Of a DNA stretch of 64,000 nucleotides, positions 3,176 to 62,278 are shown piece after piece; within the stretch, counting starts at the first letter, position 1, and each line of letters begins with the position of its first letter. Under the pieces are notes generated by a model. That model ran no database searches. It was not told the origin of the DNA and saw only the letters and a program-made list of their open reading frames with translations. The stretch is from the NCBI GenBank assembly GCA_043805735.1, contig JAZDHS010000024.1, positions 2,792 through 66,791 on the forward strand, in the 5' to 3' direction. The position numbers and the translations under genes were made by a program. This DNA is from Candidatus Omnitrophota bacterium. Lineage in GTDB: Bacteria > Omnitrophota > Gorgyraeia > JAFGHF01.

Positions 3176-3720
3176 TGGTACCCAGGTTACTGGAAAAATA
3201 CAGGAAAGAAATAGTGCCGGATATACAGCAGCGCTTCGCGCTGAAGAATAAATTACAGGTTCCCCACTTGGAAAAGATTGTAGTTAATATGGGGGTGGGA
3301 TTGGCCGCTCATGAAAGTAAGCTTCTGGAGCAGGCTAGCGCTGAGTTAGCTTTAATTACCGGGCAAAAACCGCTGATTACTAAAGCCCATAAGGCAATTT
3401 CGAATTTTAAAATCAGGATCGGCTCAACCGTCGGCTGTAAAGTTACTCTGCACGGCGCAAAAATGTATGAATTTTTTGACCGCCTGGTTAATATTGCCTT
3501 ACCGCGTATTAAGGACTTCCGCGGCTTCGCGAGCAATGCCTTTGATAAAGACGGCAACTATTCCCTGGGCCTGCGCGAGCAGACCATGTTCCCGGAAATC
3601 GACATCGACAAAGTGCAAAAAATTCAGGGGATGGATGTTACTTTTGTGATTAGTGGCAAAAACAAGAAATTGTCGCTGGAACTTTTACGCGCCTTTAATT
3701 TTCCCTTCAAACAGGAATAA
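3175..3720 (+). CDS. rplE: 50S ribosomal protein L5
   Basis: MVPRLLEKYRKEIVP...IVVNMGVG; TAATG overlap with rplX stop; ORF-track start 3154 is an upstream extension. Confidence 0.93.
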   Translation: MVPRLLEKYRKEIVPDIQQRFALKNKLQVPHLEKIVVNMGVGLAAHESKLLEQASAELALITGQKPLITKAHKAISNFKIRIGSTVGCKVTLHGAKMYEFFDRLVNIALPRIKDFRGFASNAFDKDGNYSLGLREQTMFPEIDIDKVQKIQGMDVTFVISGKNKKLSLELLRAFNFPFKQE

Positions 3721-3739
3721 GTGAAAAGGTCTTCTTAAC

Positions 3740-3925
3740 ATGGCAAAAAAATCACTGATCGCAAAAGCATTACGCACACCAAAGTTTAAAGTACGTAAAT
3801 ACACCCGCTGCAAAGTCTGCGGCCGCCGCCGTGGCTATATGCGCCGTTTCGGAGTATGCAGGATCTGCTTCCGCGAAATGGCCTTACGCGGCGACATCCC
3901 CGGCGTGACTAAGGCAAGCTGGTAA
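3740..3925 (+). CDS. rpsZ: 30S ribosomal protein S14 type Z (zinc-binding, Cys4)
   Basis: 61 aa; [20 protein letters not shown]; short zinc-ribbon S14 form. Confidence 0.9.
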
Positions 3926-3934
3926 ATGAAGCCC

Positions 3935-4050
3935 AGACTTACGGAGCCGCCGCAAAGCGGCAGGCGAACGTAAGTCTGAGGCTGAATTTATCCCGCCGAG
4001 TGTGCCAAAATTGTCGAAGATAATTTTGGCACATCATACGAGGCGGGATA
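3935..4050 (+). promoter_or_regulatory. Structured RNA spacer: 10-bp hairpin (3935-3978) plus nested 62-nt hairpin (3989-4050) immediately upstream of rpsH SD
   Basis: Perfect inverted repeats CAGACTTACG/CGTAAGTCTG and TATCCCGCC...GTGCCAAAATT/AATTTTGGCAC...GGCGGGATA seen directly; no ORF. Confidence 0.5.
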
Positions 4051-4066: not shown

Positions 4067-4462
4067 ATGAACGTCGATCCTTTGGCAGATATGTTTACGG
4101 TTATCCGCAACGCCAGCCGGGCAAAAAAGGAAAAGGCTGAAATTCCATCTTCAAAATTAAAGCTGGGAATTTTAGAACTGTTGAAAAAAGAAGGCTACAT
4201 CAAAAATTACAAGTTTATAAGTGACAACAAACAGGGAGTGGTGCGGGTGTATTTGAAATACAAAAAAGATAACGCCCCAGTGATCACACAGATTAAACGC
4301 ATTTCCACACCCGGCCGGCGGGTCTATGTACCCAAGGACAAGGTCCCTAAGGTACTGCGCGGATGGGGTATGGCAATAGTGTCCACCTCCCAGGGAGTGC
4401 TTAGCGATGAACAAACGCGCGCACAAGGGTTGGGCGGAGAAGTACTTTGCCACGTATGGTAA
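4067..4462 (+). CDS. rpsH: 30S ribosomal protein S8
   Basis: 131 aa MNVDPLADMFTVIRNA...; SD AAGGAG 8 nt upstream. Confidence 0.95.
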   Translation: MNVDPLADMFTVIRNASRAKKEKAEIPSSKLKLGILELLKKEGYIKNYKFISDNKQGVVRVYLKYKKDNAPVITQIKRISTPGRRVYVPKDKVPKVLRGWGMAIVSTSQGVLSDEQTRAQGLGGEVLCHVW

Positions 4463-4574
4463 ATGATAAGTTGTACCCCTCGCATAACCGCTTCCCCCAT
4501 CATATTAGGGAGAGAGGGGATGCGCATGCTTCGGGGTTAATTCGCACAAACTAACGGAGAATAACTGAAGAAGA

Positions 4575-4628
4575 ACAATTTACGTATCGAGTGTAGGCAA
4601 GGACGTAAATTGTGTGCTCATTAAGGAG
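4575..4628 (+). promoter_or_regulatory. Leader hairpin (11-bp perfect stem ACAATTTACGT/ACGTAAATTGT) followed by GTGCTCATTAAGGAG, upstream of rplF
   Basis: Inverted repeat seen directly; same architecture and identical 15-mer found again at 61816-61868 upstream of hup. Confidence 0.5.
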
Positions 4629-4634
4629 CAAACA

Positions 4635-5171
4635 ATGTCGCGAGTAGGTAGAAAACCAATTCCGGTTCCCGAAAATACAAAAGTAGAAATTAAAGACGGC
4701 ACGATTAGTGTAACAGGGCCCAAGGGGCTCTTACAAAGAAAGTTCCACTACCGCATGGCGGTAGAGCTAAAAGACAATACGATTATCGTCAAACGGCCGA
4801 CGGATACGGCTCAAGACCGGGCTCTTCATGGCCTGACGCGCAATCTTATTGCCAATATGGTCATCGGGGTCAATGACGGTTTTAGCAAAGAATTGGAAAT
4901 CCAGGGTATGGGATTCCGCGCCGTAGCTACCGGCAAAACTCTAAATATGCAATTGGGTTTTACCCATCCGATCGACTTTGCGATCCCTGAGGACATTACC
5001 ATTGAGACACCAAAACCGACCCAGATATTCGTTAAGGGCACGGATAAGGAAAAGGTTGGTTTAATCGCGGCAAATATACGCTCTTTTTATCCTCCGGAGC
5101 CTTATAAGGGCCGGGGAATCAGATATAAAGATGAATATGTAAGACGTAAAGTCGGTAAGGCTGTGGCATAA
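4635..5171 (+). CDS. rplF: 50S ribosomal protein L6
   Basis: MSRVGRKPIPVPENTKVEIKDG...; AAGGAG SD at 4623; ORF-track start 4614 is an upstream extension. Confidence 0.9.
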   Translation: MSRVGRKPIPVPENTKVEIKDGTISVTGPKGLLQRKFHYRMAVELKDNTIIVKRPTDTAQDRALHGLTRNLIANMVIGVNDGFSKELEIQGMGFRAVATGKTLNMQLGFTHPIDFAIPEDITIETPKPTQIFVKGTDKEKVGLIAANIRSFYPPEPYKGRGIRYKDEYVRRKVGKAVA

Positions 5172-7906: not shown

Positions 7907-8578
7907 ATGCGGCTGATTCTTTTAGGACCGCCCGGAGCAGGAAAAGGCACTCAAGCCAAATTGCTCTTTGAAAAATTTAAGCTTCCCCATATTTCTACGG
8001 GTGATATCCTGCGCGATGAGATGCGCGAACAATCGCCCTTGGGGATAAAAGTAGCGGCCTACGTCAAAAGCGGCGAATTGGTTCCCGACGCCATAGTGGT
8101 CGAGGTGGTGGCCAAAAGGTTAATTAAAAGCGACGCCCGGACCGGCTTTATTTTGGACGGTTTTCCGCGTACGGTAAATCAGGCCGAGGCCTTAGCCCAG
8201 AGTTTAAAAAAACAGTGCGCACCGATTGATTTGGTGCTTTATTTCGCCACAATCCCGGCCACCTGTGTTAAACGTCTTTGCGAAAGGCGGATTTGCGAAA
8301 AATGCGGGGCAATTTTTCACCTGACCAATATGCCGCCCAAGATCCCAGGAATTTGCGACCATTGCGGCGCGGAACTCTACTTAAGAGATGACGACCGGCT
8401 CGAAACTGTGCAAAAACGCCTGGAGGTATACCAAAATCAAACCGCTAGCCTTATTGAGTATTACAAAAAACAGGGGATCTTGCGCGAGGTTAGCGGTGAC
8501 CTGGAAGCCAAAGAACTATTTGTGCGACTTTTGGAGCTGTTTGGGCAAGAAAAACTGATCACCCCTGTAACGAAATGA
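7907..8578 (+). CDS. adk: Adenylate kinase (zinc-lid type, CxxC...CxxC)
   Basis: MRLILLGPPGAGKGTQA...; lid CEKCGAIFH...CDHCGAEL. Confidence 0.95.
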   Translation: MRLILLGPPGAGKGTQAKLLFEKFKLPHISTGDILRDEMREQSPLGIKVAAYVKSGELVPDAIVVEVVAKRLIKSDARTGFILDGFPRTVNQAEALAQSLKKQCAPIDLVLYFATIPATCVKRLCERRICEKCGAIFHLTNMPPKIPGICDHCGAELYLRDDDRLETVQKRLEVYQNQTASLIEYYKKQGILREVSGDLEAKELFVRLLELFGQEKLITPVTK

Positions 8579-50041: not shown

Positions 50042-51202
50042 TTGCTCAAGAGAAAAGCACTTGAACAATTAGAAAATAAGTTTCTTGCCAACTATGCGAT
50101 GAAAAGCCGCGATTCTCAAGGGCGAATCCATCCTGAACCGGAACATCCCTACCGCATGGTTTTTCAACGTGACCGCGACCGGATTATCCATTCTACGGCC
50201 TTTCGAAGATTGGAATACAAAACCCAGGTGTTTGTGAACTACGCGGGAGATTATTACCGCACCCGCTTAACCCATACCCTCGAAGTCGCCCAAATCGCCA
50301 AAACGATCGCCCGGGCCCTGCGGCTCAATGAAGACCTTGTAGAGGCGATCGCGCTGGCCCACGACTTGGGGCATACGCCCTTTGGCCACGCCGGTGAAGA
50401 GATACTGCACGAACTAATGAAAGAACACGGCGGGTTTGAACATAATTTGCAGGGTTTAAGGGTAGTTGATTCCCTCGAAGAACGTTACCCCGATTTTAAA
50501 GGCCTGAATTTATGCTGGGAAGTCCGCGAAGGCATCCTCAAACACGTAACTACTTATGACCACCCTAGTGAGCTGATCGAATTTACACGCTATAAGTTTC
50601 CTACCCTGGAGGCCCAGGTTGTCGATGTTGCTGATGAAATCGCTTATGATAATCATGATTTGGACGACGGCATTACCTCCGATTTTATCAATACCAAAGA
50701 TTTGAATAAAGTCGACCTCTGGTCGCAGGCAAAAGAAAAAATTGCTCAAACGCATCCGCGACTGAATGAGGAAATTAAAAAATTCCAGATCATTAAGTTC
50801 CTGATTAATTTACAGGCTCAGGACGTAATCATCTACTCGGAAAAACGACTAAGAAAATCCCACGTGCGTTCTGTGGACGAGGTTCGCCGGGCCCCCGAGC
50901 GCCTGATCAGCTTTAGCCCAGGCGTAGCCAAAAAATGCGCCCAGCTGCGCCAATTCCTCAACCAGCACCTCTATCAGCATTATCAGGTTGTGCGGATGTC
51001 AAATAAGGCCAAAAGATTTATCGAAGAGCTTTTTAAATGTTACGTCGCCAGCCCTAAACAATTACCTCCCACCAGCCTAGCGCGTTCAAAAGATGAAGAC
51101 GTATACAGGGTAGTCTGCGACTACATTGCGGGAATGACCGACCGTTATGCCCAAAATGAGTACCGCCGGCTCTTTCAGCCTTACGAAGAAAAATTAGGGT
51201 AG
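50042..51202 (+). CDS. dgt: dGTPase-like HD-domain triphosphohydrolase
   Basis: 386 aa; RLTHTLEVAQIAK...HDLGHTPFGH. Confidence 0.78.
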   Translation: MLKRKALEQLENKFLANYAMKSRDSQGRIHPEPEHPYRMVFQRDRDRIIHSTAFRRLEYKTQVFVNYAGDYYRTRLTHTLEVAQIAKTIARALRLNEDLVEAIALAHDLGHTPFGHAGEEILHELMKEHGGFEHNLQGLRVVDSLEERYPDFKGLNLCWEVREGILKHVTTYDHPSELIEFTRYKFPTLEAQVVDVADEIAYDNHDLDDGITSDFINTKDLNKVDLWSQAKEKIAQTHPRLNEEIKKFQIIKFLINLQAQDVIIYSEKRLRKSHVRSVDEVRRAPERLISFSPGVAKKCAQLRQFLNQHLYQHYQVVRMSNKAKRFIEELFKCYVASPKQLPPTSLARSKDEDVYRVVCDYIAGMTDRYAQNEYRRLFQPYEEKLG

Positions 51203-51335
51203 CCCAGAGGGGCAGACCCAGCATTCCTTTAAGCTGGGGTCTAACCCTAAAGTATAGGCCTTCGTAATTCCATATTAACGAAGGGCCTAACCCAGTAGGG
51301 TAGACCCCGGCATTCCTGTAAGCTGGGGTCTAAAT
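51199..51335. repeat. Cluster of three hairpins incl. REP-like element copies 3 (51203-51242) and 4 (51291-51331), opposite orientation to copies 1-2
   Basis: CCCAGAGGGGC-AGACCCAGC-ATTCCTTTAAG-CTGGGGTCT and CCCAGTAGGGT-AGACCCCGG-CATTCCTGTAAG-CTGGGGTCT; middle hairpin AGGCCTTCG...CGAAGGGCCT. Confidence 0.7.
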
Positions 51336-61746: not shown

Positions 61747-61775
61747 TTGACAGCTAAACTCTTTAATGCTATATT
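61747..61775 (+). promoter_or_regulatory. Promoter TTGACA-17-TATATT
   Basis: Read directly upstream of hup leader. Confidence 0.45.
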
Positions 61776-61815
61776 ATTTAAGTCTTGAAATTACTTATAG
61801 TTAGCACATTAATTC

Positions 61816-61871
61816 GCACAACAACTTACGTCACTATCGTTCCGTAAGTTGCGTGCTCATTAAGGAGGTGA
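61816..61871 (+). promoter_or_regulatory. Leader hairpin (GCACAACAACTTACG...CGTAAGTTGCGTGC) followed by TCATTAAGGAGG; same architecture as 4575-4628
   Basis: Inverted repeat and shared 15-mer GTGCTCATTAAGGAG seen directly. Confidence 0.5.
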
Positions 61872-61879
61872 AATGAAAA

Positions 61880-62152
61880 ATGACAAAGAAGGAAATCGTC
61901 CTCAAGATTGCCGAAGAAACGAATATTAAGCAGGTAGACGTAAAGAAAGTAGTGCAAAAGGCGTTAGATGAAATTGTTGCCGCCTTAGCCAGGGGGGAAC
62001 GGGTAGAGCTGCGCAACTTTGGTATTTTTAAGGTTAAAGCTAGACGCGGCCGCACCGGTAGGAACCCACGCACCGGACAGGCAGTTCCCGTACCGGCGAA
62101 AAAGGTAGCGGTCTTTAAACCCGGTTTAATCATGAAACGGGACATCAAGTAG
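61880..62152 (+). CDS. hup: HU/IHF-family DNA-binding protein
   Basis: 90 aa; [27 protein letters not shown] arm. Confidence 0.85.
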
Positions 62153-62278
62153 CGCAAACCCAGCATTAGCCGCTGCAGCAACTTTACTCCGAGAATATTG
62201 TCTTTACTGCGCATTAATATAACTACTTAGAATGAAAGGCCTTTAAGGCCGACGCCTTGAGACTTTTTATATACTATT

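Follow-up and report, generated by a model that had tools for sequence, protein, structure and literature searches.

The hairpin in the hup leader of an Omnitrophota bacterium belongs to a palindromic repeat family of the phylum

Why do the genes for a nucleoid protein and a ribosomal protein carry the same hairpin immediately before their Shine-Dalgarno (SD) sequences? The question is raised by the 64,000-nucleotide stretch of a Candidatus Omnitrophota contig analyzed here (the window), in which the HU gene (hup) and the L6 gene (rplF) share a leader motif. The initial annotation took this motif for a cis-element and suggested either a common RNA-binding regulator or RNase recognition site or a small dispersed repeat family. 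By folding the element, searching for it in other genomes, and comparing orthologous sites, we found that the hup hairpin is an insertion in the leader and a member of a multicopy family.

The hup leader and the unit shared with rplF

The hup leader contains the following features.

61747..61775, plus strand: sigma-70-type hup promoter, TTGACA-17-TATATT, with TG before the -10 (11 of 12 matches)
61809..61863, plus strand: A-type (start-side) copy of the element in the hup 5' UTR (model R1, 73.2 bits, E = 3e-16; fold)
61809-13 with 61859-63, plus strand: P1 of this copy (fold)
61814-15 with 61857-58, plus strand: TC/TC internal loop (fold)
61816-19 (GCAC) with 61853-56 (GTGC), plus strand: P1b (fold)
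61822-30 with 61843-51, loop 61831-42, plus strand: P2 (fold)
61864..61868, plus strand: GGAGG, the ancestral hup SD, outside the repeat (element-free relatives have AAAGGGGGTGA or AAAGGAGGTGA there)
61880..62152, plus strand: hup, HU/IHF-family protein of 90 aa (Pfam PF00216; 91% identity to Omnitrophota MAG proteins)

Positions and folds in the window bear out what had been described of this leader, namely, the hairpin arms and loops, the promoter, and a 15-mer, GTGCTCATTAAGGAG, that has exactly two matches in the 64 kb, at 4614-4628 and 61853-61867. Two matches were reached in none of 100 shuffles of the window. The shared motif is therefore real, but its description was incomplete: alignment of the two leaders shows that a 13-mer, TTAATTCGCACAA, is also identical between the rplF and hup copies (4537-4549 and 61809-61821), and GGAG, the last four bases of the 15-mer, is the SD and lies outside the repeat. 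The unit that the leaders share runs from TTAATTCGCAC through GTGCTCATTAA, ~55 nt, and occupies 61809-61863 at hup and 4537-4624 at rplF. The 15-mer is thus not a single unit; it consists of the 11-nt 3' arm of the element plus the adjoining SD, and it is identical at the two genes because the conserved 3' arm stops where the SD starts. Nor is it a frequent SD context. Among the 38 genome matches described below, what comes directly after the element varies (GGAG, AGGAG, ATG, or something else).

From the outside in, the unit folds into a TTAAT/ATTAA stem, a TC/TC internal loop, GCAC/GTGC, and a CAAnTTACG/CGTAAnTTG stem, and in this inner stem the hup and rplF copies differ by a compensatory T-A to C-G change. 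Because the hup promoter is upstream of the element, the latter is transcribed within the hup 5' UTR, at about +27 to +81, with a fold of roughly -17 to -19 kcal/mol; GGAGG is unpaired in the predicted centroid structure of the leader. The same promoter is kept in L001, L003, L045, L046, and L047 (L numbers designate the loci fetched for comparison).

The true hup start is the ATG at 61880. A second ATG, at 61873, is out of frame; it lies 4 nt past the SD and opens a 17-codon ORF (61873-61926) that overlaps the hup start, and because relatives have ATA there, it is lineage specific and probably of no significance. Downstream of hup, only ~125 nt with a terminator-like hairpin (62153-62278) separate it from hisS, and the cold-shock-domain gene (66 to 67 aa) that lies between hup and hisS in L001 and L003-L006 is missing from the window.

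Copies in the ribosomal-protein operon

A filter-free covariance-model search of the window found exactly three copies: those at hup and rplF and one on the minus strand at 3923-3990. The latter contains the hairpin at 3935-3978 that had been proposed as a third relative, and its membership in the family is thereby upheld. Together with associated hairpins, the copies of the rpsN-rpsH-rplF region are as follows.

3923..3990, minus strand: B-type (stop-side) copy in reverse orientation (36.6 bits, E about 1e-6; fold z = -10.4)
3990..4049, plus strand: GC-rich "H1" hairpin (ATCCCGCC...GGCGGGAT) between the B-type copy and the rpsH SD (fold)
4460..4536, plus strand: stop-side arm remnant (TAAATGA..TAAGTTGTA, opening with the rpsH stop codon) and GC-rich "H1" hairpin (CCCC...GGGG) (comparison with the intact composite L126 2382-2547; fold)
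4537..4624, plus strand: A-type copy of the SD-carrying subfamily, between rpsH and rplF (54.5 bits)

The terminal TAA of the B-type copy is the rpsN stop codon, and a matching arrangement is found at L126 1873-1926. The rplF copy has a purine-rich insert (about 4549-4574) between P1b and P2, a variant that also occupies the orthologous site of L125 and L126/L127. Judged against the intact composite of L126, the block at 4460..4536 is the left part of such a composite in decayed form; the arm remnant proper spans 4460-4476, and L030 has another. The rpsN-rpsH spacer therefore contains a B arm with a GC hairpin, and in the rpsH-rplF spacer an A arm of the SD subfamily is preceded by a decayed B arm and a GC hairpin, unlike hup, which has a lone A arm. 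Hairpins of the CCC...GGG type lie next to copies at many loci. For annotation, the element accounts for the odd 140- to 175-nt gaps within the spc operon. Exact look-ups of the HU and L6 proteins of the window gave no hit; the L6 protein is 100% identical to MFH1045923.1 (NCBI; an Omnitrophota MAG), and the homologs of HU and L6 assign the window to Candidatus Omnitrophota.

The window also contains an unrelated hairpin repeat at 51197-51335, in which two copies of GGTAGACCCnGCATTCCTTTAAGCTGGGGTCTAA enclose a related TAGGCCTTCG...CGAAGGGCCTAA hairpin. The block (~130 nt) is preceded by a stop codon and followed by a promoter-like TTGACA..TATAAT. The orthologous spacer of L033 lacks it, whereas in L021 a similar unit precedes the element. 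This repeat probably represents the family that the initial annotation had called REP-like.

Spread across Omnitrophota and covariation

We scanned one genome per species (596 Gb, both strands) for the pattern CGTAANTTGNGTGCTCATTAA, whose 19 fixed bases lead one to expect ~4 chance matches, and obtained 38 loci, nearly all of them in MAGs labeled Omnitrophota. A few carry the labels Planctomycetia, Nitrospirota, or Scalindua (as deposited), and one betaproteobacterial match looks like chance. Most of the 38 also have the full left arm. At the first free position of the pattern, the partner base always compensates (C-G 11, U-A 11, G-C 3), and at the second, it mostly does (G-C 10, A-U 8, G-U 3, U-A 1, unpaired 3).

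A covariance model (R1), built from 25 copies and run on the window and the fetched loci, recognized ~69 distinct copies, with up to 5 per 8 kb. All model copies are intergenic, whether among the ~69 from 340 kb of seed-centered loci, the 3 in the 64-kb window, or the 5 in 366 kb of unbiased HU loci. When 62 distinct copies were aligned, 97.7% of cells proved to be paired, and compensatory changes affecting both partners were seen in 15 of the 19 pairs. Doubly changed cells numbered 169, compared with 37 in shuffles, none of 500 of which reached as high a count, and this margin is large, although the alignment was fitted to the model and so favors structure. The outer stem covaries as well (TCAAT/ATTGA, TAAAT/ATTTA, TAAGT/ACTTA). 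Each half of the unit is an inverted repeat of the other over ~21 nt, and the loop between them ranges from 3 nt up to nested GC hairpins.

Hence, the suggestion of a small dispersed repeat family proved correct, the family being present in dozens of Omnitrophota genomes. Were the three copies in 64 kb the only ones, a chance match or a recent local duplication within one genome might suffice to explain them; given 38 loci elsewhere, strong covariation, and the failure of 100 shuffles to produce two 15-mers, such an origin is vanishingly unlikely, and the element is plainly conserved in related genomes.

At the gathering score, Rfam 15 found only a tRNA in the window, and at E values of ≤1 it found nothing on the element in three element-rich loci. 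Viral contigs gave no match to the element, and a literature search by phylum, keywords, and sequence returned no published description of it.

At L039 1-80, a contig end in a single-cell genome, both the element and its flanks are mirrored to give a perfect palindrome; this copy, most likely a fold-back artifact of amplification or assembly, was excluded from the set. Two element-rich Omnitrophota loci contain matches to other RNAs, one resembling a c-di-GMP-I-GGC riboswitch (L009 104-218; 51 bits versus a gathering score of 59) and one to a group II intron domain, above the gathering score (L027 7705-7778).

Gain and loss at orthologous sites

Filled and empty orthologous sites were found at four places: the hup leader, the S8-L6 (rpsH-rplF) and S14-S8 (rpsN-rpsH) spacers, and the region upstream of tRNA-Gly. 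In the five closest relatives by HU (82 to 91% identical), the hup promoter and leader (...ATTACTTATAGTTAAGTAAAGGGGGTGA..ATG) are kept and the element is absent. The model search detected it in 0 of 52 related hup loci; L001, L003, and L006, read directly, also lack it, and only 5 copies occur anywhere in 366 kb around 61 HU loci, ~300 kb of which is Omnitrophota-like. Since element-free relatives share the hup leader and SD, the SD must be ancestral, with the hairpin inserted immediately 5' of it as a block of ~55 to 57 nt.

The S8-L6 spacer tells the same story. The empty site of L130 reads tggTAA, GGAGAGTCTAGG, ATG, and by comparison the window has 162 nt exactly between TAA and GGAG, with nearly identical flanks and with the block itself ending in TAA. 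This site is empty in L128, L129, and L130 and is filled with the SD-carrying variant in L125 and L126, so that 3 of 6 lineages have it filled. The S14-S8 copy is found in the window and in L126; L125 carries a copy only in S8-L6. Both spacers are element-free and only 11 to 34 nt long in L128, L129, and L130. Upstream of tRNA-Gly(CCC), the syntenic relative L033 has a full composite whose last base directly abuts the first base of the tRNA, versus a 7-nt spacer in the window. Three ribosomal-protein regions, 58.7 kb in total, contained no copy.

In L128, an element-free complete genome (CP070837.1), the S10/spc spacers at 3684-3791, 4700-4838, and 8047-8157 are still 100 to 140 nt long and may hold a different repeat.

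These comparisons bear directly on the proposal of a gene-specific cis-regulatory leader, in which a single regulator would read rplF and hup as one regulon joining a ribosomal and a nucleoid protein. Two highly expressed genes do share an identical 13-mer and 15-mer ahead of their SDs, which speaks for it, as does retention of the rplF copy at the orthologous site in L125 and L126, but the absence of the element from all the related hup leaders searched and from the rplF site of L128, L129, and L130 makes it very improbable. Furthermore, the element precedes ~40 unrelated genes and also follows stop codons in inverted orientation. The downstream genes are diverse housekeeping genes for translation and the nucleoid (S7, S11, S16, L6, L32, L34, L36, HU), biosynthesis (hemB, fabH, leuB, aroB), the chromosome and cell surface (ftsK, ruvA, parA, pilM), and redox functions (rubrerythrin, desulfoferrodoxin, ferredoxins), in addition to others and one tRNA. 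They form no regulon, and the element has no gene-class specificity. It may contain an RNase recognition site, as had also been suggested, and this would then be a property of the whole family and not of rplF and hup specifically.

Placement, arm subfamilies, and composites

Copies follow a placement rule. Forty-seven of the 69 end -3 to +20 nt from a start codon, and 14 contain or adjoin the stop codon of the upstream gene; the remaining 8 comprise copies at the tRNA, at a short L36 gene, and at contig ends and a few of unassigned context. Start-side copies are of three kinds. In the first, which includes hup and rplF of the window, the SD directly follows the element and the ATG lies at +9 to +16. 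The second comprises ~22 copies with an ATG or GTG 0 to 5 nt after the element and no SD, among them the well-anchored starts of S7, L6 (L125/L126), hemB (two genomes), and ftsK (two genomes). In the third, which forms a subfamily, a conserved purine-rich insert with AAGGAG lies just 5' of the inner stem (P2), and the ATG is at +0 to +2 in 5 of 6 cases. The stop-side copies form a subfamily of their own, TAAATTCGGCC..GGCCTCATTTA, which on the mRNA strand reads TAAATGAGG... and provides TAA and TGA stops in two frames. Arm subfamily is strongly associated with position (Fisher p = 2e-8; p = 1e-3 without the seed-pattern copies).

At least 10 opposite-strand pairs of copies, 35 to 130 nt apart, surround a GC hairpin. 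The order in such composites is stop codon, inverted B arm, GC-rich hairpin with a CCC..GGG base, A arm, and SD or start codon, and the polarity from B to A along transcription holds in 10 of 10. The A and B arms are reverse complements of one another, conserved loops included. Taken together, the arm subfamilies, the polarity, the SD-less flush starts, and the tRNA whose 5' end adjoins a copy suggest that selection is linked to transcription or translation.

The GC-rich hairpins beside A copies belong to sequence families common to different genomes (CCCAGCAC(T/C).., CCCGCCCTTTTG.., and ACCCTTGACATT..), as seen at L009 5610-5650, L030 3886-3935, and L020 3863-3940 and upstream of the copies in L024/L027; some have long AT-rich loops. 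At L028 4861-4948, the loop of an A copy contains an H1-type GC hairpin (CCCGCCCTTTG..CAAAGGGCGGGG) bordered by the direct repeat CTTCGT, which resembles a 6-bp target duplication and suggests that the GC hairpins are separately mobile. A hybrid hairpin at L011 5731-5785, with a 5' half that is B-like on the mRNA strand (TAAAAATGAGGCC) and a 3' half that is an A arm, has the form that would be expected if a composite had collapsed by deletion between its arms.

Several familiar kinds of element were considered and set aside. Inspection by eye revealed no sigma-70- or sigma-54-like hexamers at sensible spacing inside the element, and the hup promoter lies upstream and is kept where the element is missing. 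A leader peptide ending at the terminal TAA would have no good start codon and would lose its frame across copies of 55 to 57 nt. A split ribosome-binding site with its SD at the end of the upstream ORF showed no enrichment (2/14 versus 3/19). Neither T runs after the arms nor T runs after the GC hairpin, as an intrinsic terminator would have, were present. Integron attC sites have R''/R' cores (RYYYAAC/GTTRRRY) and form same-orientation cassette arrays beside intI; the termini of the element misfit these cores, and its copies lie beside core housekeeping genes in either orientation. Judged by cores, array structure, and context, the element is neither an attC site nor a CRISPR repeat.

A probable mobile repeat or a possible cistron-boundary signal

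We conclude that the hup hairpin is one inserted copy of an Omnitrophota-wide, multicopy, noncoding palindromic repeat, probably a non-autonomous mobile element of the REP, REPIN, or MITE kind that is moved by a putative enzyme. The unit is a ~55-nt interrupted hairpin (5-bp outer stem, conserved TC/TC loop, 4-bp stem, 9- to 10-bp stem, and variable loop) that is found alone or as an oriented composite (stop, inverted B, GC hairpin, A, SD or start). Copies are placed exactly on the TAA of a cistron boundary, either a stop codon or a TAA just 5' of an SD, and the 3' arm is fused to GGAG at both rplF and hup because of this placement. At hup, the copy entered between the conserved promoter and the ancestral SD, giving a transcribed 5'-UTR hairpin predicted to leave the SD free, and we infer that its effect on hup is most likely neutral or a modest shift in mRNA stability or translation. 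The family may also have been shaped for harmlessness at cistron boundaries, as the B-arm stops in two frames and the SD carried by one A subfamily would imply.

Some observations sit less easily with a mobile element. A motif scan of 829 kb of fetched loci, a weak test, turned up no transposase or RAYT, and there is no unambiguous target-site duplication. Such a duplication is not callable because TAA/TTAA belongs to the covarying terminal stem: TAA flanks the insert at S8-L6 and hup yet is part of that stem, and TTAA as a target-site duplication was ruled out on the same ground. The near-consensus hup singlet, inserted alone, misfits the REPIN rule that the doublet is the replicative unit, and sequence conservation across a phylum is unusual for selfish repeats. 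Against pure DNA parasitism, the position-specific arm subfamilies and the uniform composite polarity point to selection linked to the direction of transcription. The ~22 SD-less copies flush with start codons are hard to square with mere harmlessness unless the element has a positive role.

The main competing explanation is an operon "punctuation" RNA whose B arm closes the upstream cistron and whose A arm sets the 5' boundary of the next RNA, with mobility being secondary. In variants of this idea, the A hairpin is cut at its 3' base, yielding a leaderless or short-leader mRNA or a tRNA 5' end, or else serves as an SD-independent initiation platform, and a conserved Omnitrophota protein reads it. 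The SD-less starts, the copy that ends exactly at the first base of tRNA-Gly, the division into start-side and stop-side subfamilies with constant B-to-A order, the subfamily with AAGGAG just 5' of P2 and the ATG right behind the element, and covariation combined with phylum-wide sequence conservation would all follow. We nevertheless regard punctuation as possible but unlikely, as orthologous sites in relatives work without the element and whole regions and genomes are free of it. As RNAs, moreover, the two arms are different sequences; since they are reverse complements even in their conserved loops, the conserved entity can be argued to be DNA. Mismatches of the G-T and A-C types show no strand signal (16:12 and 6:3, from few mismatches), and SDs are not enriched at the ends of upstream ORFs. 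A broader version, a general cistron-boundary signal that is mobile but functional, with the A hairpin read by a lineage-specific factor for cleavage or SD-less ribosome recruitment and the B arm capping the upstream cistron, seems to us unlikely as well.

Likeness to known repeats

Returning to the reading as a mobile repeat, the element has several counterparts. REP families carry a conserved GTAG-type tetranucleotide at the head of the palindrome and have been described chiefly downstream of genes. The element, in contrast, has termini of TTAAT/ATTAA and covarying variants without GTAG, and most of its copies are at the beginnings of genes, where they directly adjoin the start codon or SD; its arm is a 55-nt three-stem hairpin, whereas a REP measures 20 to 40 nt. 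What it has in common with REPs, BIMEs, and REPINs is that all are short imperfect palindromes present in many copies in extragenic transcribed DNA, with two inverted arm subtypes that are separated by a short spacer and can form a larger hairpin; decayed arm remnants occur here too. REPINs come with RAYT transposases, encoded by a single-copy HUH-Y1 gene that the repeats flank, and their singlets are decayed remnants that are less conserved than doublets. BIMEs and REPINs are known as inverted doublets with a spacer, accompanied by decayed singlets, that, like this family, persist vertically over long periods with patchy copy number (PMC3116915; bioRxiv 10.1101/2021.07.10.451892). The element departs from them in that no RAYT was identified for it by the weak scan mentioned above, in its hup singlet, which at 73 bits is near consensus and was inserted alone, and in having composites of fixed polarity relative to transcription and a consensus shared by many species across the phylum.

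MITEs such as Correia/NEMIS, RUP, and ERIC are similarly small and noncoding, with inverted-repeat ends, are cotranscribed, and can supply expression signals, and presence/absence polymorphism at orthologous intergenic sites (four sites here) is another shared trait. At 55 nt, however, the element is far below typical MITE size; it is essentially all inverted repeat, forms a modular three-part composite, and lacks a clear target-site duplication, and the fetched loci revealed no parent insertion sequence with matching ends.

A stable hairpin between SD and start codon defines the split ribosome-binding site of the phage T4 gene 38 type. The subfamily with AAGGAG 5' of P2 and the ATG after the 3' arm resembles it only as a structural analogy, the non-hairpin spacing being ~15 nt. 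Neisseria REP2 and Borrelia IR elements lie immediately upstream of ORFs and contain internal stem-loops and a ribosome-binding site (PMC3184786), and the SD-carrying subfamily behaves alike. REP2, however, carries a promoter and an ATG and is without terminal inverted repeats, whereas the hup promoter is outside the element, most copies of the element have no SD, and the element also occurs inverted after stop codons.

Significance

Most work on intergenic repeat families has dealt with cultivated Proteobacteria and Firmicutes. The present family belongs to a phylum that is uncultivated and whose cells are very small and possibly host dependent. Unusual features are that it has a consensus common to many species, that it lies flush with start and stop codons even in ribosomal-protein operons, that its start-side and stop-side arms are separate and of fixed polarity, and that one subfamily has its own SD. 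Leaders of this kind should not be annotated as gene-specific regulators. If the family is only selfish DNA, it shows a repeat evolving tolerance in the tightest operons and can readily serve to mark contigs as Omnitrophota; if instead the RNA form is what is read, the family would represent a new way to mark cistron boundaries and to start translation without an SD.
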